A DNA stretch of 64,000 nt from Candidatus Methanomethylicaceae archaeon GD_Cm_T35_P0_bin.15 (GCA_038801785.1 JAULTD010000001.1:289404-353403), one strand, 5' to 3'. Shown: positions 14,719 through 39,894, numbered from the stretch's first letter. The notes: generated by a model from the letters alone, not told the origin. Numbers and translations are program-made.

Positions 14719-15669
14719 TCAGATCCGAATGAGATCGATGTCAAGGTCCTCTGCCAGCGTGCGCGCGTATTCTTTGAAAGCCGAAGGGGTGCCCTTCCAG
14801 TCGACGACGATGGAGGAGCATCCGCCAAAGGTCTTCCTGGCGCACTGCCTGAGGATCGAGTAGTCCGAGCCCCGGCCGGGGGCCATTGCATACTTCGGGA
14901 TTATGTGCCCCAGCGCGGAGTCCTGCTGCGAGAGGACGAGACTGGTGAACTTCTCTGGGTAGTGGCCCCCTCCGAGCCCGAGGGAGCCGCCTCCTCTGAC
15001 TGGTTTTGAGATCGCGGACGCCACCGCCCGGGCAACTGCCTCACCGAGGGCGTTGTCGTTCCACGCCCCCTCATCGCTGCCTATCTCCACGAAGGTCACC
15101 GGAGGGGCCAGGGCCGTCGGGCCATGGTGTGTGGCCTCGAAGGAGACGTCTGTATCTAGGCCGAGGAGGTCCTTGGACCTCCGGAGCTCGCGTATGAGGT
15201 CGGACTGGAGGCAGGGGTTCGATATCCCCACCTGACCGGGGTTCCCGCCGAGAAGGGCCTCGTTCCTCAGGTTGCCAGGGGAGTGCGCGGTGAGGCAGCG
15301 TTTCCCGGACTCGCTCCGGTGACGGGAGAGGCAGAGGACCCACTCCCAGCCAGGATCGTCTTTGGGCACCGGCGCCTGCCCACGGTCCTGATCATGGCCC
15401 AGATCGTGATCGCGCTCCTGATCCTGACGGGGCGCCTGCCCGCCGCCACGGCCAGCCAGAACCGGCAGGGTCAGGGCGGTCAGCGACCCCCTGACGGCCA
15501 CCAGCCGCAGATCCGAGTATGGGGGGGCCCGGCCGACCAGCGAACCCCCCTCAGCGAGGCTGGTGCCAGCACCATCGCCGGCGCCGACGAAATCAATCTC
15601 TTCGAGCAGGTGGGAGGCGATGTTCCTTCCGGCGGGATCGTCTTCGGAGAAGACTAGCAGCTTTGCCAA
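14719..15669 (-). CDS. dtdA: D-aminoacyl-tRNA deacylase, archaeal DtdA type
   Basis: N-terminus MAKLLVFSEDDPAGRNIASHL and SRH.S..G...LTAHSPGN resemble the archaeal DtdA family. Confidence 0.65.
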   Translation of the reverse strand: MAKLLVFSEDDPAGRNIASHLLEEIDFVGAGDGAGTSLAEGGSLVGRAPPYSDLRLVAVRGSLTALTLPVLAGRGGGQAPRQDQERDHDLGHDQDRGQAPVPKDDPGWEWVLCLSRHRSESGKRCLTAHSPGNLRNEALLGGNPGQVGISNPCLQSDLIRELRRSKDLLGLDTDVSFEATHHGPTALAPPVTFVEIGSDEGAWNDNALGEAVARAVASAISKPVRGGGSLGLGGGHYPEKFTSLVLSQQDSALGHIIPKYAMAPGRGSDYSILRQCARKTFGGCSSIVVDWKGTPSAFKEYARTLAEDLDIDLIRI

Positions 15670-30029: not shown

Positions 30030-30260
30030 TTACTTAAAAAGTTTGTCGGTCGAGCGGGCAATCCGACGGGTTAGGATGCGGCCGCCGGGATTCGAACCCG
30101 GGATCCGAAGCTTGGGAAGGAAACTCTTGGAAAGAGTTTCATCAGAAACGGCAATTTTGATGATGTTCTGCGGGGTTGTACTGTACAGGGAAGCCAGCTC
30201 CTTCAGGCGCCCGGCTACGTCTTCAGGGACGGTCAGGACCTTGTAGCCTTTCCTGGGCAT
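30030..30260 (-). CDS. integrase N-terminal fragment Int(N), reading through the left att into flanking DNA
   Basis: Codons 1-47 (30260-30120) are element-encoded (MPRKGYKVLTVPEDVAGRLKELASLYSTTPQNIIKIAVSDETLSKSF). Codon 48 starts exactly at the first att base. The att translation LPKLRIPGSNPGGRI is the same at both ends. Confidence 0.7.
   Translation of the reverse strand: MPRKGYKVLTVPEDVAGRLKELASLYSTTPQNIIKIAVSDETLSKSFLPKLRIPGSNPGGRILTRRIARSTDKLFK
30074..30119. repeat. att site, left copy (orphan 3' half of tRNA-Gly(CCC))
   Basis: ggatgcggccgccgggattcgaacccgggatccgaagcttgggaag, identical to 39816-39861. The flanking bases differ on both sides. Confidence 0.95.
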
Positions 30261-30314
30261 AAGTGCTCGGCTACCGTATGTCAGAAGAGACGGAAGAGGT
30301 TATCGGTACATAGG

Positions 30315-31493
30315 TTACATATACTTACAGAGTCCAGCAATACGCTGGTGTAGCAGTTTTTTATCCTTAATATAACCTGCAGAATCTCGATCATTAATAT
30401 ATTCCCCACTGACTGCCAGTTCTTTCTTACTAGCTGTCACTTCATGAATTTTGGATAGATAATTAATTCTTGGTAGTGCCTTAGACAACTCCTTTTCATC
30501 GTTGGTAGCGGTAAGTAAGTAATGCAGATACTCCATATCTTTACTATTATTTTCAACAGCTAAGTCATGAGCTATTTTATCAGGATCAGGACTATAATGT
30601 ACAAAATCTTTGATGCCTAGATCATCCCTATCAAAGAACATTGTGGTTATTTTTCCTATTCCACCGCGTTTTCTTTTAATAAAGATACCATTTTCAATAC
30701 AGAAGATATCGCCAAGTCGGTATTCAGAGAAGTGTGTGCAAGATAAATGATCGTCAAACTTCCTCTTTACATCCGTCATAATTATCGCAATATTTTCGTT
30801 TTTTAGTGTGTCCCAAACATAATCGTAGTTTATAGCGACCTCTTCATAAGGATGGAAAATTAGGCCAAGGAGGTTAATAGTTCCACTCGCACTCTGGTTT
30901 TTAACGAAGTCAACTATTTGCTTAAAGTGCTTCTCATCATGTTTAAGATCCAAGAAAAAGATAGGTTCCATTCCTTCCTCCAGAATATTGTCATGTATTC
31001 CTTTGAGAATATCAAGTTGCGCTAAATTACCTAGATGAGGGACTGCCAGCAAGTTACTCTCTTTATTTTGAAGCGTGGTCTCTAGACTAAAAGTCATCCT
31101 TAGAAATTTCTCGTAGGTGGTCCTGCTTATACAAGATAGCCCACTTTGACATGGTTGCACCAGTATCAGAGGTAAAGATGCGTGGATCCCTCGTTTCATA
31201 ACGTTTTCAGCGTCAGTGTAGACATCTGAATACCCTTGGTTTTCCGAAAGAAACCTAGCTGTACAATCAGAACCTAATTTGTATGGCAGGAATAGGATGT
31301 CACTATCGTTAAGCAATGGTGTAGCAATGGGCACTTTCTTCTTGGCGTTGAGTTCCGATCGTGTTATGGATCTAAAAGGCGTTTTGAAGGTAATTCCATT
31401 TATTTGGATCTCGGTGGTCCTGCAACGATAGAATAGTTCAGACTTACGGTCTTTTTCATCAACATTATTTACGTGTACTTTAACTTTACTCAT
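30315..31493 (-). CDS. 392-aa protein of unknown function (third gene of the coupled operon)
   Basis: The ATG at 31493 overlaps the upstream stop as ATGA. AT-rich codon usage. Alternating hydrophobic strand-like segments (ILFLPY, LILVQP, LLAVPHL, IFFLDLK, LLGLIF, IAIIMTDVK). I recognise no family. Confidence 0.6.
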   Translation of the reverse strand: MSKVKVHVNNVDEKDRKSELFYRCRTTEIQINGITFKTPFRSITRSELNAKKKVPIATPLLNDSDILFLPYKLGSDCTARFLSENQGYSDVYTDAENVMKRGIHASLPLILVQPCQSGLSCISRTTYEKFLRMTFSLETTLQNKESNLLAVPHLGNLAQLDILKGIHDNILEEGMEPIFFLDLKHDEKHFKQIVDFVKNQSASGTINLLGLIFHPYEEVAINYDYVWDTLKNENIAIIMTDVKRKFDDHLSCTHFSEYRLGDIFCIENGIFIKRKRGGIGKITTMFFDRDDLGIKDFVHYSPDPDKIAHDLAVENNSKDMEYLHYLLTATNDEKELSKALPRINYLSKIHEVTASKKELAVSGEYINDRDSAGYIKDKKLLHQRIAGLCKYM

Positions 31494-32050
31494 CCTCGCC
31501 CGCGTCCCCAAGTAATTCCTTTGTATTTTTTCTTGAGTTCCGATTTATCTATAAACTCTGGATAATGTTCGTAAGCATAACGGAGTATGCCATCGGTACC
31601 TAGTTCATCCCACCCCTTCCGGTACGAACGGACTTTTTCAATAACGCGCTCGGGGATTTTACATAGTCGACCCTTGGCGTAGACGCTTCCCCTTTTAGTT
31701 AGTACAAAGGACTCATTTCGGGTATTTTTCTTACCCCTGCGTTCGATATACCCTGCGAGCTCAAGGTCTTTGAGAAGCTCCGCTATCTTGAAGCTGTACA
31801 TTCCAAATCGAAATGGGACATAGTGTAGGTCTTCAAGCGAAGTATTTTCGTAGTGTTTCCGTAGTATTTCCTCGTTAAGGAGGAACACTTCTTTCATGAA
31901 TAGAGTTCTACCATAAATTGGTTTATCATACGAGTTGAGTAATAACAGCACGATCTCGCTGGCAGTTAGCTGTGGAGGAGTTATTTTATCATATGCTCTA
32001 AGTGCCTCCTCAAAAGTGTAGAGTTTCGTCTTATCTTCTATAACGTTCAT
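31490..32050 (-). CDS. YwgA-like / Panacea (DUF4065)-like wHTH protein, copy 1
   Basis: GRTLFMKEVFLLNEE...YVPFRFGMYSFKIAELLKDLELAGYIERRG parallels the KLQKxxYxxxx...FxxYGPYSxxL...L...G pattern. The ATG at 32050 overlaps the upstream stop as ATGA. Confidence 0.55.
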   Translation of the reverse strand: MNVIEDKTKLYTFEEALRAYDKITPPQLTASEIVLLLLNSYDKPIYGRTLFMKEVFLLNEEILRKHYENTSLEDLHYVPFRFGMYSFKIAELLKDLELAGYIERRGKKNTRNESFVLTKRGSVYAKGRLCKIPERVIEKVRSYRKGWDELGTDGILRYAYEHYPEFIDKSELKKKYKGITWGRGRG

Positions 32051-32529
32051 AGTCGCACCTCTACCAGATCGCCCGCCTTGAAGTTTTTGCATGCATCCGT
32101 TTTAATCCTGTAAACTTTCAGGAAATAACGCTTGCCATTATGAAGCAACCATAGGTGTAGTGGTGGATTTCTCTGGGTTATTTCTTGCTTAATGCTATCT
32201 TGTAGCGATTGAGTTGGTCTAGTTATATACTGTAACTCCGTAACGAGGTCGGTCAAAGTGATTCCAGCTATCTTCATTTGCGCTACAGTTTCCTCTGGAT
32301 ACAAAATTCCCTCGGCAAAGCAACCGGGTTCGATTACTTCGTATTTAGTCCCGCAAGCGTGGCAATTCTTTTGTGGTATGCCCTGTACCGCATAGACGCG
32401 TGGTTTGCCAAAAGACATGGTACCGATTTTAGGAAGTTGTAGAGTCCAAGGGCTGCTTATTTGTTCAAGTGTGATCGTTTCTACAGAGCCGGCCCCACAA
32501 TAAGGGCAGTAAGCGGGCAAAGATGCCAA
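32047..32529 (-). CDS. Zn-ribbon protein, unknown function (first gene of the coupled operon)
   Basis: CPYC (aa 8-11) and CHAC (aa 56-59) pairs, followed by an ~90-aa C-terminal domain with no motif I recognise. Confidence 0.5.
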   Translation of the reverse strand: MASLPAYCPYCGAGSVETITLEQISSPWTLQLPKIGTMSFGKPRVYAVQGIPQKNCHACGTKYEVIEPGCFAEGILYPEETVAQMKIAGITLTDLVTELQYITRPTQSLQDSIKQEITQRNPPLHLWLLHNGKRYFLKVYRIKTDACKNFKAGDLVEVRL

Positions 32530-32968
32530 CCGAGCGCCTCACTTGAATTATGTCTGTTAATATAATTTAGACTGTTTATAAGCTATATCAAAAATTGTAC
32601 GATACCACAAAGTATCAGAGGTTAAGAGTCTAAACTAGTTATTTATTTTTATCAGACATAGGGTAACTATAACGCTCCAATTTTGGTAGCATTTATGAGT
32701 TTTATTTTCACCCCTCCCTCCCGCCGTAACCACCTTTCCCGAGTCCTTTTACCCTCCCGCCTACTACAAAGGACGGGAAGCGCTATGCATTCACAGCCGA
32801 CCCTGGAGGATCTGGGCGAGGAGCTCTTCAACGGGAAGGTAAAGTGCCAGAAGTGCGGGAAGTGGTGCATGTCCTGGCTCGGGCTGGCCGTACGCACTTC
32901 GGCAAGCGCCACGGGAAGCGCCTGGCGGAGGCCACGTGGGAGGACCTGGGGAAGGTGGGAGGATCCTG

Positions 32969-33130
32969 ATGGGCTGGAGGGAGTGCGAGGACGTCCTGGA
33001 GCTCGCGCTGCTAAAGATGCGCAGGTGCCGATCCGCGGAGGAGTGCAGGGGAGCGGTGGCGGATATCTTGGCGCTGGTCAAGGAAAGGAAGTTCGAGAGG
33101 CTGAAGGAGGAGCTGGGGGTGATGGAGTGA
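32969..33130 (+). CDS. possible small helical protein (53 aa) inside a GC-rich patch of the element
   Basis: MGWRECEDVLELALLKMRRCRSAEECRGAVADILALVKERKFERLKEELGVME. Its ATG overlaps the TGA of an upstream reading frame (TGATG). Confidence 0.3.
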   Translation: MGWRECEDVLELALLKMRRCRSAEECRGAVADILALVKERKFERLKEELGVME

Positions 33131-33254
33131 TGATAGTATGTTGATTAGACCTTGTCATTAAAAACTAAAATTTTTTAAAGCCAAAAAGTGATAGTGTCTT
33201 TATAATAAGAATATATTTTAGAGAAGATGGGTTTAGAAATGGGTTGGAATAGAA

Positions 33255-33698
33255 ATGGTCACCGGCGACAGAAAGAAACTCCTGACATATTTAAAATATA
33301 CTGGGAGCGAATCGATAGCTACCTTAAAAGACAGAAAAATAGCACAGAAAAAAATTTACCTTTTGCAGCGAATTGGACTGGACTTGGGATACCATTTCGG
33401 TTGGTACATCTATGGTCCGTATTCGCCTCGTCTAGCCGATGATCTATACGAAGCCTTTGATGCTCAAGACACTAAAGATATGCCGCTAGAGCAGGAAGAA
33501 AAAAATTGTTTAGACAAGTTGAACTCAATCCTGTCAAAACTTCCAGAAGACCAAAAGGACTATTGGCTTGAGCTCTTGGCATCTTTAGATGTAGTGAAAA
33601 AGAAAGAGCTTCTCAAGAAACTTAAACCGAATAAGTTTAAAGATGAAGATATCATGCGCAGTGAGGCTTTGCTTGAGAGATACTTAAGGCGAACGTAG
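33255..33698 (+). CDS. YwgA-like / Panacea (DUF4065)-like wHTH protein, copy 2
   Basis: KIAQKKIYLLQRIGLDLGYHFGWYIYGPYSPRLADDLYEAF closely follows the KLQKLLY...F.W.YGPYS..L pattern. Its stop TAG is immediately followed by the ATG of the HD gene. Confidence 0.65.
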   Translation: MVTGDRKKLLTYLKYTGSESIATLKDRKIAQKKIYLLQRIGLDLGYHFGWYIYGPYSPRLADDLYEAFDAQDTKDMPLEQEEKNCLDKLNSILSKLPEDQKDYWLELLASLDVVKKKELLKKLKPNKFKDEDIMRSEALLERYLRRT

Positions 33699-35069
33699 AT
33701 GCGTCCACATGACATTTATGATTCTGTACATGGCTACATCCACATAACAGCTGAGGGGGACGACATAGTAGCCGACCCTTATTTTCAGAGACTTAGGAGG
33801 GTACACCAGCTCGGCCTTGGAAACATGGTATTTCCCAGCGCAGAGCATACGCGTTTTTCCCATTCATTAGGCGTAATGCACATAGTGACAAAGATGGTAG
33901 ACGCATTGAACAATAACGTCGGAAGCAATTCACAGCTCATTGATAAGGACGATAAAAACCTCTTACGCGTCGCAGGTCTTCTTCACGATGTAGGGCATAT
34001 GCCTTTCTCGCACTTCTTGGAAGATGTAGCCAAATCTATGGGCAGTACTATCAGGCACGAAGATTTGGCTGGAAAGATAATTAAAGAGACCGGTCTTAAA
34101 GATGAGGTAGAAAAAGCGGTCGGTAATAAGGTGGAGGAAGTAATTTCCCTCATAAACAAAACTTATGAGTTGGACCTCGATGAAGCAGAAAAAAGAGGGC
34201 AAACTAACGCTCATGTGCTGAATAGTTTAATAAGTTCCGAGCTCGACGCTGACCGCATAGACTACTTGTTGAGGGATGCTTATCACATAGGCATCCCGTA
34301 CGGCAGTTTTGACCTAAATAGGATTTTAAATACCATGATCGTTGCAAAAACGGATGACGGTTCAATGGTTCCCGCTCTTAAAAGGAAGGCGAGACTTGCT
34401 GCCGAAAATTACATTATGGCCAGGCTGCACATGTATGAGGCGGTGTATCTTCACAAAACTATAGGTGCTTTCAATTGTATCCTAAGGGAGCTTTACATCC
34501 AAGGAATTAACGAAGGGATCCTTCCAAGCTTTGAGGAAATGGAAAGCCAAATAACCGAAGATTCTTTCTTCTGTACTTTTGACGATTATTATGTCCTCTC
34601 ACAAATACTCCATCACGATTACCGTAGCGATCACCATAAAAAATTGAAAAAGATGTTCATTGAAAGGCGCCCATTAAAACTTGCATATGAAGTAAAAAAA
34701 TCGAGAGGAACCGTAAATCCTCATGATGTAACCGCAAGTTGGATCGCATTAACTGACATATCAAAAATAAAGGATGAATTTTGCAAAAAGTACGGTCTCA
34801 AACCAGAATCAATTTTCTTTGAAGAGCCAAAGTTATCCGCTCTAAAGGTAAAACTAGATACTGCGGATTATGAGGATGCAATATACATCGAAGACGGCGA
34901 AGGCCACGCGGAGCCCATCAATAAGAATAAAGAGTCTTTCGTAGAATCCCTGCTAAAATATAACATGGATGTAAAGCGCGTTTACACATTTGAAGAGAGT
35001 GTAGAAAAAGTAAAAGAGGCAATAAAAAAAGAAATTGGAAAAAAGAAGGAAGAATACGATCTAAATTAA
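33699..35069 (+). CDS. HD-domain phosphohydrolase, SAMHD1 / dGTPase-like (COG1078 type)
   Basis: RFSHSLGVMHI, GLLHDVGHMPFSH and ELDADRIDYLLRDAY correspond to the H...HD...D metal-site motifs of SAMHD1-like dNTP triphosphohydrolases. Confidence 0.8.
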   Translation: MRPHDIYDSVHGYIHITAEGDDIVADPYFQRLRRVHQLGLGNMVFPSAEHTRFSHSLGVMHIVTKMVDALNNNVGSNSQLIDKDDKNLLRVAGLLHDVGHMPFSHFLEDVAKSMGSTIRHEDLAGKIIKETGLKDEVEKAVGNKVEEVISLINKTYELDLDEAEKRGQTNAHVLNSLISSELDADRIDYLLRDAYHIGIPYGSFDLNRILNTMIVAKTDDGSMVPALKRKARLAAENYIMARLHMYEAVYLHKTIGAFNCILRELYIQGINEGILPSFEEMESQITEDSFFCTFDDYYVLSQILHHDYRSDHHKKLKKMFIERRPLKLAYEVKKSRGTVNPHDVTASWIALTDISKIKDEFCKKYGLKPESIFFEEPKLSALKVKLDTADYEDAIYIEDGEGHAEPINKNKESFVESLLKYNMDVKRVYTFEESVEKVKEAIKKEIGKKKEEYDLN

Positions 35070-35218
35070 TCCAACGCCATCGATACAACCATTACGTTGA
35101 CTTTATGATCTCTTAGTGCCATAAAAAGGTTGTAATTGCGCGGTAGAAGTCGTGAGCTAAATTAATGAAAAATTAATTATTAATAAAAGTTAAACCTATA
35201 AAATGGCAGCGACTAAAG

Positions 35219-38200
35219 ATGACGTTTGAAGAGTCTTTTAAGAAATACCTGGAGGCAGCTTCCTCTGCCGGCACGCACCAGGCAAAGATGATCGCGTTTA
35301 CAATTTTCCTTAGCGAGGTCTTCGGAAAGTCGAGCTATGAGATCATCCAGGATGTAGAGAAGTACGTCTCAACTCGGGACAAAATAAGCATGATGACCAT
35401 AAAAGGCCGAATGGACATGCACTTTGGGCAGACAATCATCGAGTTCAAACTCAATCTTTCGCGCGAGCTGGAAGCGGCAAAGGAGGAGCTGGCCAGGTAC
35501 GCAAAGATCATGCGGAGCAATCGGCAGAAGGTCGGCGAGTGCATAGTGACGGACGGCCTGATCTTCAAAGTAATGGTTGTAGGCGACGAAGCAAAAGAAG
35601 TAAGAGAGATCGACTTCCGCAAGGTGCCGCCGGAAACGGCGATCCTTTTCCTCGACACTTACCTATTCAGCGCCAGGAAGAAGCCTACCGCAGAAGACCT
35701 CGCCATGCGGTTCGGCCCCGGCTCGCCGGTCTACGAGGAAGTAGTAGGCGGACTGACCCCTCTCTTCGGCAACATGCAAATTCCCATAAAGTTCCAGCTG
35801 TGGCAGAGGAACATGCAGATAGTTTACGGGAACGCGCCCCCAGACGAGGCTTTTGTGTCCCAGACTTATCTCATGGTCCTGGTAAGGCTGCTTTTACTGA
35901 GGTATTTGACCGGAAGAGCGCCCCCATTGCTCGACGGCCTGAACGGCAAAATCTTCCAAGAACAAGGAATCCACATCATTGAGGAAGATTTCTTCTCTTG
36001 GATTTTTGATCAGAGGTGCTGGCCGCAGATCGAACCTCTCGTCAATACGATGGTCGATGCGCTCGAATGCTACGATCTCAGCGAGATCGACGAAGACGTC
36101 TTCAAAGAGATCTACCAGGAAATCATAAAGCGCGGCGAGAGGCACAGGATCGGCGAATATTATACGCCTGAGTGGTTGGCGGAACTTACTCTCAACGAGG
36201 CAATTAAAGCGATAGGCCAGGAAAAGAAGTTCACGGTGCTGGACCCCGCGTGCGGCTCAGGCACGTTCCTGACGAAGGCAGTCATCCATCTGAAGAGGAA
36301 CGGGGCTTCGCTCAAAGAAGTCTTGGAAAGCGTTTACGGGATAGATTTGAATCCGCTGGCCATAGAGATTTCGAGGACAAACTACCTCCTGGCGCTTGGC
36401 AGGCTCATTGAGAAGCGGAAAGGGCCGATTTTCATACCCGTGTTCATGGCGGATTCGATAAAGCTGCCGGATGTCCGTAGAGAGGTCATGTACGGCGAGC
36501 CCATCCTCGCCATAGACGTCGACGAGAAATTGCAGCTGAACCTCCCGTTGGAAGTAGCGCTGGATGACAACAAACTGAAAGAGGACCTGAAGCTTTTCGA
36601 GGATATCCTGAGGGAGTACAGGACGGGCAGACTGTCTAAACCGCTGGCGCTCAAGGCCTTTGAAAGCATGTGCGGGCACAGGGAGGCGCTCAAGGAAATA
36701 CTGAAGGAAACGCTGCAGAAGATAATGGATCTAATAGACGTCGACAAGGACTCGATCTGGGTCTTCATGATGCGCAATATTTACGCGCCGTTGAGGATGA
36801 AAGAGAAAAAGTTCGACTTGGTCGTCGGGAACCCTCCCTGGGTGTCGTTCAAGTTCATCGAAAATGTCGAGTACCAGAAATTTATCAAAAAGACGGTGTT
36901 CGAATATGGGCTATTGAGTCCAAAACAAACGGACCTTTTCACGCAGATTGACACATCAACTGCATTCTACACCAAGGTAGCTGACATTTATCTTAAGGAT
37001 AGCGGCATCCTGGCGTTCGTCATGCCCAAGAGCGTCCTCACAGGAGCCAAACAGCATGAGGCATTCAAGAAACAACTCCATCCACCAATGAGGGTTTTGG
37101 GAATACACGACGTGGGTGAGGTTAAACCCCTTTTCAACGTAAAGGCGTGCATAATTATTGCCCAGAAAGGGGGAGCGACTACTTTTCCAGTGCCAGCGGG
37201 CATATGGTCTGGCGAATTGTCCAAGAAAAACGCTTTACTAAAAGACGCCAAGAAGGTTCTTGAATTGAGGGAGTCAAAGTATGTTCCACCAAAAAAGAGT
37301 GATAAAACGAGCCCGTATCATGGTGAGATGCTCTCTGGTGCAGGGATTTATCCTCGGACTTTATGGTTTGTGAAATTCGTGCCAAGCAGCTTTGGGGTCA
37401 ATCTAGAAGAGCCTTTGGTAGAAAGCCTGATTTTGCCCGACGCTAAGGCGCCTTGGAAGAGCGTAATGCTGAAGGGCAGCGTTGAGAAAGATTTTGTATT
37501 TGCCACAATGACCGGAAAGGATTTGCTCCCCTTCAAGCCGCAGTTCAAGGCGGTCGTTCTTCCGATTGAAAAAGGTTCCTACAAATACAAGATTCTCACT
37601 CCGGAGGAGTTAAGGGGAAAGGGCAAGTTAAAGATGGCAAATTGGGTTGAGACAGCAAATAAATATTGGTCTTCACTGGCGACAAAGACTTCGATAGCAA
37701 ACTTTCCCACCCCAATGGATTACATGAACTACCACAATAAGCTAGAGCTGCAAAGGACGAACCTTCGTTATTACGTGGTTTATACCGCGTCCGGTACACA
37801 CATCGCGGCTGCTGTAGTGGATACAAAAAACCTACCGCCGTTCCAGGTCGACGGCGCCAAGATACGCCCCAACGGCTTCGTCGCGGATTATAAGACCTTC
37901 TGGTTCGGCACGAATAATGCAAATGAAGCATCTTACTTGGTGGCCATATTGAACTCGAATGTTATGGATGAGATGATCAAGCCGCACCAGTCAGAAGGGG
38001 CCTTTGGAGCAAGAGACATCTGCAGATTGCCCTTCGAGTTCAACATACCTGAATACGACCCAAACAACGGTATTCACACAGCGCTTGCCGTACTGGGGGC
38101 CGAAGCAGCGAAGGAAGCGGATCGCCTCCCCAGAGCGTCCAGGATGAAAATAAAGGCGAAGATTCCCCAGATGCAGATGATAGATGAACTTACCAAGAAA

Positions 38201-38272
38201 CTATTAATGCAAAATAGATCAGACGTCTTGAGGCGTCAGGAATTAACTGATAAACGATCTAACGATTGCTAA
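35219..38272 (+). CDS. MmeI-like type IIL/IIG restriction-modification enzyme (nuclease, N6-adenine methyltransferase and TRD in one chain)
   Basis: N-terminus QAKMIAFTIFLSEVFGK...GRMDMHFGQTIIEFK gives a D-x8-ExK nuclease motif, like MmeI. Methyltransferase motif I LDPACGSGTFL and motif IV VVGNPPWV. A long C-terminal target-recognition region follows. Confidence 0.75.
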   Translation: MTFEESFKKYLEAASSAGTHQAKMIAFTIFLSEVFGKSSYEIIQDVEKYVSTRDKISMMTIKGRMDMHFGQTIIEFKLNLSRELEAAKEELARYAKIMRSNRQKVGECIVTDGLIFKVMVVGDEAKEVREIDFRKVPPETAILFLDTYLFSARKKPTAEDLAMRFGPGSPVYEEVVGGLTPLFGNMQIPIKFQLWQRNMQIVYGNAPPDEAFVSQTYLMVLVRLLLLRYLTGRAPPLLDGLNGKIFQEQGIHIIEEDFFSWIFDQRCWPQIEPLVNTMVDALECYDLSEIDEDVFKEIYQEIIKRGERHRIGEYYTPEWLAELTLNEAIKAIGQEKKFTVLDPACGSGTFLTKAVIHLKRNGASLKEVLESVYGIDLNPLAIEISRTNYLLALGRLIEKRKGPIFIPVFMADSIKLPDVRREVMYGEPILAIDVDEKLQLNLPLEVALDDNKLKEDLKLFEDILREYRTGRLSKPLALKAFESMCGHREALKEILKETLQKIMDLIDVDKDSIWVFMMRNIYAPLRMKEKKFDLVVGNPPWVSFKFIENVEYQKFIKKTVFEYGLLSPKQTDLFTQIDTSTAFYTKVADIYLKDSGILAFVMPKSVLTGAKQHEAFKKQLHPPMRVLGIHDVGEVKPLFNVKACIIIAQKGGATTFPVPAGIWSGELSKKNALLKDAKKVLELRESKYVPPKKSDKTSPYHGEMLSGAGIYPRTLWFVKFVPSSFGVNLEEPLVESLILPDAKAPWKSVMLKGSVEKDFVFATMTGKDLLPFKPQFKAVVLPIEKGSYKYKILTPEELRGKGKLKMANWVETANKYWSSLATKTSIANFPTPMDYMNYHNKLELQRTNLRYYVVYTASGTHIAAAVVDTKNLPPFQVDGAKIRPNGFVADYKTFWFGTNNANEASYLVAILNSNVMDEMIKPHQSEGAFGARDICRLPFEFNIPEYDPNNGIHTALAVLGAEAAKEADRLPRASRMKIKAKIPQMQMIDELTKKLLMQNRSDVLRRQELTDKRSNDC

Positions 38273-38949
38273 AAGTTGTAGGGCCTCCCTACCTCGTATA
38301 TCTCTTTTGATATCTTTTTCAACTCTTTAAAATAGCCCTTCGGGTACTTTTTCCAATTTATTTTTCTGACCAGGTCTCTGACTTCGTCGGACACACCGCT
38401 GCCAACGTATCATTCCCTATCCTGCTGGGCTTTGGCGTGGTGGCAATAGTTCTGGGATATGCGATCGCGAATATACGCCAGAAGAAGCCGCAGCCGCCCA
38501 TAGTGGTCCAGGTGCAGTCCAAGTACCTCAGGAAGAAGGGCAGGGGACAGGCATGACCAAGCTCCTGTCCTTGGTCGCCTGCATGTGCTTCAATGGTATC
38601 CTCTCATCCAATATGTCCTCAGCTACGCTCTACCGACTAGTGCAAGCTGGAAGATGCACTTTACTGATAGATGAATCGGAGGACTTAGCTAATCCTGAGA
38701 GGCGCCAGGACTTAATCGACTGACCGGCTTTCGGGCTTACTTTTTTTTCGCCCGTTAGATTACAAAAGAGCTGTTTTGTAATGTGTTCCGGTTTCAGCCT
38801 CTGAACTCCATAAAATAGCAGAACTGGAGTACTATATAAAAATAAAATAATATGCGGGCTTTAGGGGGAAGCATCATTGCCCCCTTTCCCTGAGAGCTGA
38901 CCGAGTTACGACAACATCCTCGCCAGCGGGAACGCTTAGCAATGATACT

Positions 38950-39765
38950 TTATGTTAGAACCTTCAGCCCTGCCCGGTCGTATATTGCCTTAAGGTTTTC
39001 AGGCGAATAATCGCTGTAATGCTTGGCCAGCACAGACCGGGGGACCCTGCCCTGGAAGGCGTCGATGAACCTGTCTGCCACGCCCAGACGGGCCATCTCA
39101 TTCGAAAACCAGAACCTCAGCACTTTGGGAGTTATCTTCAGCCCGGTCTTCTTCTGGGCTATGACGAAGAGGCAGGACTTGTCGGAGCCTCTGATAGAGA
39201 AGAGGTTCTCGGACTTGTGCTTGCTTTTCATCCACGCCCCCAACAGGTCCTCGAACTCGCCGTTGTAGAACGTCATGAAGGACCTCTTGGTCCTGGTGGC
39301 ATGCTGGGGAGTGATCATCCTCAGGCCAGTGTTTACGTTAGAGACCTTCAGCCCCAGCAGCTCGGCCCTTCTCAACCCGGTGACAGCGTACCCCACGAAT
39401 GCCAGCCGCTCGTAGTCCTCATCCAGGGCAGAGTAGAACTCTGCGAGCTCTTTCCTGGAGGGCATGCTCATTATGGGCGGGTCCACCTGCTTTATCTTGA
39501 AAGGCAGCTTCACGTCCTGATACTTGGCATAGGCGATAAACGACTTCAGGTAGTTGTTGAAGGTGTTCGGGTTCTCTAACTGCGCCAGGAAGGAGCGCAT
39601 GGCGTCTATCGTGAACGGGTTTGCTGAGAGGTACTTGCGGAGGTTTCCGGTGTACTTCTGGGCGGTCTTCCGGCTTATGTCCAGGTCAGTCAGGCAGAAC
39701 TCCTGGAACTTCAGTACTGTACCAGCATCGAACCCTGTACTGTACCCGTTTCGCGGTTGTTGCAA
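38950..39765 (-). CDS. integrase C-terminal fragment Int(C), tyrosine recombinase catalytic domain
   Basis: GLRRAELLGLK (catalytic Arg region), and RVPRSVLAKHY near the C-terminus (second Arg and Tyr). The track start is a TTG. The frame stays open upstream through the att copy as far as a TAG at 39865-39867. Confidence 0.8.
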   Translation of the reverse strand: MQQPRNGYSTGFDAGTVLKFQEFCLTDLDISRKTAQKYTGNLRKYLSANPFTIDAMRSFLAQLENPNTFNNYLKSFIAYAKYQDVKLPFKIKQVDPPIMSMPSRKELAEFYSALDEDYERLAFVGYAVTGLRRAELLGLKVSNVNTGLRMITPQHATRTKRSFMTFYNGEFEDLLGAWMKSKHKSENLFSIRGSDKSCLFVIAQKKTGLKITPKVLRFWFSNEMARLGVADRFIDAFQGRVPRSVLAKHYSDYSPENLKAIYDRAGLKVLT

Positions 39766-39815
39766 AAGCGTCTTTCTTGGTAAAGCTTCTTTGACGCCGA
39801 CAAAGAAGGTTTGAT

Positions 39816-39861
39816 GGATGCGGCCGCCGGGATTCGAACCCGGGATCCGAAGCTTGGGAAG
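39816..39861. repeat. att site, right copy (within the intact tRNA-Gly)
   Basis: Identical 46-mer to 30074-30119. Confidence 0.95.
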
Positions 39862-39894
39862 CTTCTATCCTAGACCGGACTAGACCACGGCCGC
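39819..39894 (-). tRNA. tRNA-Gly (anticodon CCC), no encoded CCA
   Basis: Reverse complement: GCGGCCG acceptor stem, anticodon arm GAAGC-TTCCCAA-GCTTC, T-arm CCGGG-TTCGAAT-CCCGG, CGGCCGC, discriminator A. Confidence 0.9.

Follow-up and report, generated by a model that had tools for sequence, protein, structure and literature searches.

A probable SSV-type integrase gene split by its own insertion at tRNA-Gly(CCC) in an archaeon of the Methanomethylicia lineage

A 64,000-nucleotide stretch of the genome of the methanogen-related Candidatus Methanomethylicaceae archaeon GD_Cm_T35_P0_bin.15 (GCA_038801785.1, JAULTD010000001.1:289404-353403), hereafter called the window, very probably contains an integrated element of about 9.8 kb that entered a tRNA-Gly(CCC) gene and, by its own insertion, cut its SSV-type integrase gene (int) in two. 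The fragment encoding the catalytic part, int(C), lies directly behind the tRNA gene, and the fragment encoding the N-terminus, int(N), lies at the far end of the element. Four observations carry this conclusion: an exact repeat bounds the element, the two halves of int rejoin in frame across that repeat, both halves are homologous to uninterrupted integrases, and the same design recurs at other tRNA genes.

The repeat, which reads CTTCCCAAGCTTCGGATCCCGGGTTCGAATCCCGGCGGCCGCATCC on the minus strand, is a direct repeat of 46 bp with only two copies in the window, at 30074-30119 and 39816-39861. Because no 46-mer is expected to recur exactly within 64 kb by chance, the repeat is more than a coincidence. 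An intact tRNA-Gly(CCC) gene was predicted by ARAGORN at 39819-39894 on the minus strand, and this gene is the chromosomal target (attB), which has survived integration. Measured on the tRNA, the attachment site (att) begins 3 nt ahead of the anticodon and finishes 3 nt beyond the 3' end, matching the pattern in which an att of about 40-50 bp constitutes the 3' part of a tRNA gene that is restored upon insertion. The proximal copy, attR (39816-39861, minus strand), belongs to the functional tRNA gene and encodes integrase residues 48-62 in frame. The distal copy on the int(N) side, attL (30074-30119, minus strand), is an orphan 3' half of tRNA-Gly(CCC). Together they delimit a complete element of 9788 bp (30074-39861), in which the GC content is 0.38-0.53 versus 0.55-0.62 in the flanks, and the drop coincides exactly with the repeat-bounded interval.

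Short-read assembly can go wrong at repeats of 46 bp, the GC content of the element is unlike that of its host, and the source assembly is incomplete (1.49 Mb in 8 contigs, 75% complete). These facts raise the question of whether the element was falsely joined to the chromosome through the shared tRNA-like 46-mer, with the true molecule being free and carrying an intact int gene. There is very little chance that this is so. Both junctions lie within a single contig of 547 kb with host genes on either side, and a mis-join would not produce both att junctions, attL and attR, together with int halves in just the positions that recombination predicts. Furthermore, the same layout is found in a closed genome, that of Candidatus Methanosuratincola petrocarbonis LWZ-6, which is described below.

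The gene structure agrees with insertion within int. The int(C) fragment occupies 38950-39815 on the minus strand, with 288 codons and a stop, and encodes the core-binding and catalytic domains. Its reading frame runs uninterrupted from 39864 to the stop codon at 38950-38952 (304 codons), passes through the right att copy, and is closed upstream by a TAG at 39865-39867 within the tRNA gene. No ATG appears in this frame before residue 135 of the rejoined protein, and the 271-aa version of the open reading frame (ORF) starts from a TTG at 39765. At the other end, int(N) (30120-30260, minus strand) begins with an ATG at 30260 and runs for 47 codons to 30120, such that codon 48 starts at att base 30119. 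As integrated, the ORF continues through the left att copy into the host flank and stops at 30030-30032, giving a protein of 76 aa (30030-30260).

Both att copies translate as LPKLRIPGSNPGGRI in the int frame. When 30260-30120, one att copy and 39815-38950 are joined (141 + 46 + 866 nt), the result is a stop-free gene of 1053 nt encoding 350 aa, with the junction peptide ...SKSF LPKLRIPGSNPGGRI HQTFFVGVKEALPRKTLLQQPRNGY.... A first-pass annotation, made from the sequence alone, had proposed this reconstruction. Its coordinates for the ATG-less catalytic part and for the TAG in the tRNA are all correct, the 47-codon ORF and the shared att peptide were confirmed by translation, and recomputing the rejoined ORF gave the identical junction peptide. 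Type II or pNOB8-type integration, in which int stays intact and attP lies outside the gene, was considered as well and is ruled out by the lack of an ATG in int(C) and the TAG upstream in the tRNA.

A frame match alone would arise with a 1-in-3 chance, and the N fragment forms a small but complete ORF that has a start and a stop of its own, a predicted fold resembling the ribbon-helix-helix (RHH) and weak matches to RHH families in Pfam. One could therefore suppose that the halves are unrelated genes, namely a CopG-like RHH regulator and a 5'-truncated integrase pseudogene, that share a frame by coincidence. We consider this extremely unlikely in view of the relatives of the rejoined product. 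A search of 5.8 billion proteins returned 107 relatives, eight of which are uninterrupted (P0002, P0018, P0020, P0029, P0036, P0043, P0047 and P0048; 349-368 aa, each with 100% query coverage). All eight begin with MPRKGY/F..(S/L)(I/L)T(V/L)P, the same N-terminus as that of int(N), in an alignment that includes MPRKGY...IIKIAVSD. The 47-aa fragment shares 31 of 44 residues (70%) with the beginning of the closest of the eight, the 349-aa integrase P0002 (pairwise E = 1e-19), and the pairing of the halves recurs in frame at three other tRNA genes. The first-pass annotation had also named a finding that would have undone its proposal, namely a fragment resembling a stand-alone protein such as CopG that is never fused to integrases in relatives. 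The fragment is CopG/RHH-like, yet it is fused to an integrase in all eight intact relatives.

The homologues also reveal where attP lies. Most of the remaining relatives, some 95 proteins, are int(C)-length pieces of 246-320 aa, and several of these, P0004 and P0007 (ISGSNPDGP) among them, begin inside the tRNA-encoded peptide. The intact P0002 gene holds a tRNA-Pro-like 3' half, CCTGGGGCGCTTGTGATCTCGGGTTCAAATCCCGACGGCCCCACCA, at the homologous position, and thus the arrangement with attP inside int is visible directly in an unsplit gene. This sequence is nearly identical to the att at the tRNA-Pro(GGG) gene of the source genome, from which it can be concluded that the element carrying P0002 probably targets tRNA-Pro(GGG). 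The P0002 gene resides on contigs JAVZFI010000039.1 (13 kb) and JAVZKW010000058.1 (8.7 kb), and almost all of their genes are ORFans, the exceptions being one Rce1-like protein and a single additional fragment of an integrase. These contigs probably represent an episomal virus or plasmid of Methanomethyliaceae; a check for circularity found no terminal repeat of at least 15 nt in them.

The rejoined product is a tyrosine recombinase. In the hidden Markov model search that the first-pass annotation had called for, it passes the threshold of PF16795, the SSV-type "archaeal phage integrase" family (Phage_integr_3), at 30.9 bits where 27 are required (E = 3e-7), although the match covers only profile positions 101-145 of 161; PF00589 falls just short of its threshold. 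Nearly all of the 107 homologues also carry precomputed PF16795 matches, and a catalytic domain of this family is a criterion for the class (PMC8371274). A second hallmark is the R...KxxR...Y catalytic signature of SSV-type integrases (She et al. 2004, as cited in PMC8371274). In the rejoined numbering, the catalytic residues are R211, K239 (the beta-hairpin lysine), K293-V-L-R296, R319 and Y329, and R211, K293-V-L-R296 and Y329 have aligned counterparts in the Sulfolobus virus Ragged Hills (SSV-RH) integrase. The two enzymes have in common the box I arginine, the beta-hairpin lysine, KxxR and FQGRxPxSxLxKHY. Most relatives have QxLR at the KxxR position, and the lysine is therefore not invariant within the family. 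Among 50,697 phage records, the sole matches are to fuselloviruses. Matches in the plasmid database PLSDB are limited to Sulfolobus and Saccharolobus plasmids and generic bacterial integrases (Rhizobium, Agrobacterium), with no Thermococcales plasmid matched at E <= 1e-3. A single origin has been proposed for the clade that includes SSV, pTN3 and pT26-2 integrases (PMC8371274). A 36%-identical homologue was also seen on a contig binned as a Desulfobacterales bacterium (L044, JABXJW010000102.1), which may reflect either an error in binning or a transfer between domains.

With the PF16795 match, the eight intact homologues and the tRNA-like site inside the gene of the closest homologue, the earlier assignment of this integrase to the SSV1 type, with attP inside int, is supported. 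Such integrases are defined by an attP inside int, an att of 40-50 bp at a tRNA 3' end, and partitioning of the gene on integration (PMC8371274, PMC7253208). By analogy, we infer that the element once existed as a circle and that its excision would require an integrase supplied in trans. The ancestral molecule would have been a circle of about 9.7 kb with an intact 350-aa integrase gene, whose 46-bp attP, equivalent to the 3' part of tRNA-Gly(CCC), would sit inside the coding sequence in a poorly structured linker between an RHH-like domain and XerA-like domains. Recombination of this attP with tRNA-Gly(CCC) would insert the element and regenerate an intact tRNA gene, leaving int(C) directly behind the tRNA and int(N), with the promoter and start codon, 9.7 kb away. 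This mode would correspond to type I integration, also called "SSV-type" or "suicidal."

Several results weigh against this reading. The identity to SSV integrases is low (23-26% over residues 131-331, E about 2e-5), and the family profile matches archaeal XerA far better (2.3e-30) than the SSV1 catalytic domain (6e-6). A pattern for the unsplit attP (int(N) end, N46, int(C) start) had no matches in viral and metagenome contigs, and one for the empty attB (tRNA 5' part, N46, host flank) had none in metagenome contigs. Similarly, the joined flanks (2085 nt) match only the tRNA in 40 related genomes, none of which belongs to the same genus, and the flanking genes are not syntenic. Also, the element has no recognisable replication gene, so that an autonomous circular life is a matter of inference. 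In addition to these points, tblastn searches with four proteins from the flanks gave no match next to tRNA-Gly in any of seven relatives.

The recurrence of the design provides further evidence. Every tRNA gene in the source genome (G000) was checked for second copies of its own sequence, which uncovered three further cases. At tRNA-Thr(CGT), a 47-bp att (G000:C2:257627-257673 and 267464-267510) joins halves that restore an open MPRKGYTTITVP... integrase. This element measures about 9.9 kb (G000:C2:257597-267510), and its rejoined integrase of ~355 aa belongs to the family of the window integrase. At tRNA-Phe(GAA), also with a 47-bp att (G000:C7:20662-20708 and 14726-14772), int is antiparallel to the tRNA and rejoins in frame; the element is about 6 kb long (G000:C7:14726-20738), and its integrase apparently starts with TTG. 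The third case, at tRNA-Pro(GGG), has a 57-bp att (G000:C7:74210-74266 and 71436-71492) and is a 2.8-kb remnant in which int(N) is intact and int(C) is cut after about 40 residues. A different observation concerns tRNA-Leu(TAG), the 3' part of which recurs as a 31-bp repeat (G000:C2:299870-299900 and 317118-317148) 17 kb downstream of the tRNA. This interval may be another integrated element, and no integrase of the same family as the window integrase was detected in it.

The survey was extended to 62 species-representative genomes of the class, 31 of which belong to the family. Matches were present in 22 of the 62 genomes (18 of the 31 in the family), and not one of the 47 matched chromosomal places across the class spans both halves without interruption. 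Each match is an int(C) piece that begins at about residue 47-110, a shorter fragment from the interior or the C-terminus, or an int(N) piece that reaches from residue 1 to about 62. In the closed genome of LWZ-6 (CP130488.1), an element at tRNA-Arg(TCT) is bounded by a 51-bp repeat (about 1463595-1478248), and its int(N) and int(C), which lie 14.6 kb apart, rejoin in frame as MPRKGFRSLTLPEDLY...IIKIAVSDE.... Relatives also occur in metagenome-assembled genomes (MAGs) labelled Bathyarchaeia, Nitrososphaerota, Hadarchaeia, Methanocellaceae and Methanoperedens. An attP located inside int is thus indicated by the in-frame halves, by the tRNA-like site in an intact homologue, and by three more loci (Thr, Phe and the Arg element of LWZ-6).

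The state of the integrated gene provides hints regarding its age. The first-pass annotation had noted that both halves appear intact, and they are indeed undecayed. Of the alignment columns with at least 90% conservation across 94 homologues, the window protein keeps all 46. In three other genomes (L009, L011 and L013), tRNA-Gly(CCC) is accompanied by int(C) relatives that are frameshifted or truncated. The undecayed state of int suggests that the insertion is probably fairly young. In SSV-type systems, the full-length enzyme alone both integrates and excises, the fragments are inactive, and disruption of the gene is itself the control of directionality. The first-pass annotation had also allowed that the element might still be excisable. 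According to published work on the class, a split gene yields no active enzyme, and excision needs an intact integrase supplied in trans by a related incoming element (PMC8371274, PMC7253208). In the source genome, which is 75% complete, no intact member of the family was detected.

Might int(C) nevertheless still be alive? Read-through from the tRNA promoter, coupled with a non-ATG start such as the TTG at 39765, could yield a partly or fully active recombinase, perhaps acting with the separate RHH fragment, that would allow the element to excise itself. The arrangement has some of the necessary features, since int(C) is parallel to and abuts tRNA-Gly, its 271-304 aa include everything that can be aligned to XerA (a complete two-domain core), it keeps all conserved residues, and int(N) retains its own ATG and upstream region. 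However, int(C) lacks an ATG, and no promoter was identified for it. Truncated integrases of SSV2, pTN3 and pT26-2 could not recombine, and SSV2 Int(N) and Int(C) showed no association (PMC8371274). Furthermore, the decay of the copies at the same tRNA in related genomes is what would be expected if int(C) is unselected after integration. Self-excision by int(C) is therefore improbable, and we favor an element that was left dependent on an outside integrase by its own insertion.

An AlphaFold2 model built on P0002 with 94 aligned sequences (mean pLDDT 85.8) gives the predicted architecture of the protein. An extended-helix-helix unit at residues 5-40, the core-binding domain at residues 91-159 and the catalytic domain at residues 181-343 are all modelled with confidence, whereas residues 51-85, which comprise the att-encoded stretch and its surroundings, have pLDDT values below 50. 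In this model, the att-encoded peptide (window residues 48-62) is within a predicted disordered linker. The peptide specified by the tRNA T-arm differs among members: the Gly, Pro and Arg elements encode GSNP, the Thr element GVQTP and P0003 GFKS, and the T-arm at the tRNA-Phe element is read from the opposite strand as GFEP. This variation suggests that the linker is probably under little constraint at the protein level. The core-binding and catalytic domains are closest to archaeal XerA, both by profile (2.3e-30) and by Foldseek.

The N-terminal unit, with an extended segment at residues 5-12, helices at 13-26 and 30-39 and pLDDT values of about 90, fits a beta-alpha-alpha topology. Family members match RHH_5, RHH_1, MatP_C RHH and VapB with E values of 1e-4 to 0.03, all below the cut-offs. 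When a model of the 76-aa ORF from the window was searched with Foldseek, mostly RHH proteins were returned (CopG, Arc, AmrZ, ParD, AtaR and MatP). The CopG matches reached TM scores of 0.71-0.80 on the target at E values of about 1, and no RHH match is individually significant. In sequence searches, the 76-aa int(N) ORF gave one match only in a word-based search and nothing meaningful in the PDB. An RHH-like fold for the int(N) domain is thus suggested by the predicted structures but is not proven.

The end of int(N) may hold a further clue to the history of these elements. Its last 45 nt (30120-30164, minus strand), which stop exactly at att, match the end of int(N) in the tRNA-Pro remnant (G000:C7:71493-71537) with 100% identity. 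Upstream of this block, the Gly element and the Pro remnant share only about 60-65% identity, and their att sites differ. The block includes a perfect 9-bp inverted repeat, GAAACTCTT-TCC-AAGAGTTTC, at 30120-30140, for which the chance expectation is 0.04. Neither the block nor the inverted repeat was found in 31 other genomes of the family. A role for the palindrome as a family-wide binding site beside att was considered and is disfavoured by this absence, which favours instead a local exchange of int(N) modules. Such an exchange, as in the chimeric-integrase model (Badel et al. 2020), seems more likely than a conserved binding site.

The persistence of int(N) could also have a regulatory meaning. 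It is conceivable, although we hold it to be unlikely, that integration acts as a switch that frees the 76-aa RHH-like protein to repress incoming related elements, to provide immunity against them or to act on them as a dominant-negative partner. This idea would presume that int(N) keeps its promoter and start codon in the integrated state. Three features are compatible with it. First, a disordered linker encoded by att would permit the domain to detach and be retargeted. Second, int(N) is intact in the 2.8-kb tRNA-Pro remnant while int(C) has been destroyed. Third, two int(N) copies with different tRNA targets share the identical 45-nt block with its inverted repeat. A scan for bacterial-type promoters and terminators around int(N) was uninformative, as the host is an archaeon.

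Between the two halves of int, the element carries genes in two divergent operons. On the minus strand at 30315-32529 are three overlapping genes encoding proteins of 160 aa, 200 aa and 398 aa. The middle one of this cassette, the 200-aa protein, is winged helix-turn-helix-like and matches PADLOC PDC-M19A and phrog_24871. In the circular form, the cassette would lie upstream of int on the same strand. The earlier description of int as the fourth gene behind a three-gene operon thus stands for the shared strand and the 54-nt gap, which speak to geometry only. On the plus strand, 33255-35069 encodes a 147-aa adaptor-like protein and a 456-aa HD-domain phosphohydrolase that is dGTPase/SAMHD1-like (PF01966, PF19276; PADLOC dGTPase, 7.5e-10), with matches to NCBIfam dGTP triphosphohydrolase models that remain under the cut-off. 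The following gene, at 35219-38272 on the plus strand, encodes a 1017-aa single-chain type IIG restriction-modification enzyme of the MmeI/Eco57I-like kind (PADLOC REase_MTase_IIG, 8.3e-90; PF02384, PF07669, PF20473). A GC-richer patch at 32530-33255, between the divergent operons, has no convincing gene.

On the basis of these matches, such cargo as can be recognised is defence-like. Searches against PHROG, Pfam, NCBIfam and PADLOC gave no match in the element to capsid, packaging or replication proteins, and neither a viral nor a plasmid identity is supported. The term cryptic integrated element, as used by Krupovic et al. 2019 (PMC6563490), describes it best. The same study described NitEve-E3, a thaumarchaeal cryptic integrated element with a split SSV1-like integrase. 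As described, NitEve-E3 resembles the window element in being cryptic, in lacking viral hallmark genes, in its split SSV1-like integrase and in its occurrence outside hyperthermophiles, and homologues of the window integrase are found in MAGs of Thaumarchaeota/Nitrososphaerota, the lineage of NitEve-E3. Unlike NitEve-E3, the window element has a cargo of three defence-type modules.

Comparisons with other known systems show where the design is conserved and where it departs. The Sulfolobus fusellovirus integrases of SSV1, SSV2 and SSV-RH (type I, PF16795; PDB 3VCF, 4DKS, 3UXU) have attP inside int and upstream of the core-binding domain, an att corresponding to about the 3' half of a tRNA, and a gene that integration divides into int(N) and int(C), all as observed here. 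The annotated att of SSV-RH is at an equivalent place to the window att, before the core-binding domain. However, the N-terminal domain of the SSV-RH integrase does not align with the window N-terminus and is not RHH-like. Furthermore, SSV hosts are Sulfolobales whereas the window host is a Methanomethylicia-type archaeon, and the window element has no fusellovirus genes.

The pT26-2 and pTN3 elements of Thermococcales and Archaeoglobales (Badel et al. 2020, PMC7253208; Cossu et al. 2017) parallel the window family in having many integrated copies per lineage and signs of int(N)/int(C) module exchange, and no directionality factor is known for either. The att geometry is nearly the same: the 51-bp att of pT26-2 starts 2 nt ahead of the anticodon and extends 6 nt beyond the tRNA (PMC7253208), compared to 46 bp with 3 nt on each side in the window. 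The window int is parallel to its tRNA, whereas that of pT26-2 is antiparallel, as is that of the tRNA-Phe element in the source genome. The hosts of pT26-2 and pTN3 are deep-sea hyperthermophiles, unlike those of the window family. Archaeal XerA (P. abyssi 4A8E, T. acidophilum 5HXY) gives the best profile and structural match to the core-binding and catalytic domains, but it is a resolvase of chromosomal dif sites that has no N-terminal RHH domain and no att within its gene, and it is not known to be split. The NCBIfam XerA model scores only 41 bits on the window protein, against a cut-off of 220.

Suicidal SSV-type integration is already well described in archaea (SSV1, pTN3, pT26-2), and the window element leaves the known picture of the mechanism unchanged. 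Methanomethylicia are absent from a 2021 review of archaeal tyrosine recombinases, and we found no paper linking this lineage to integrases; split SSV-type integration is now documented there as well. The complete genome of LWZ-6 has the same design, and if that organism is in culture, excision and trans-activation could be tested at the bench. An element of this kind can carry a compact set of defence genes. Finally, the position of attP in a predicted disordered linker behind an RHH-like domain may explain how these enzymes switch between tRNA targets.

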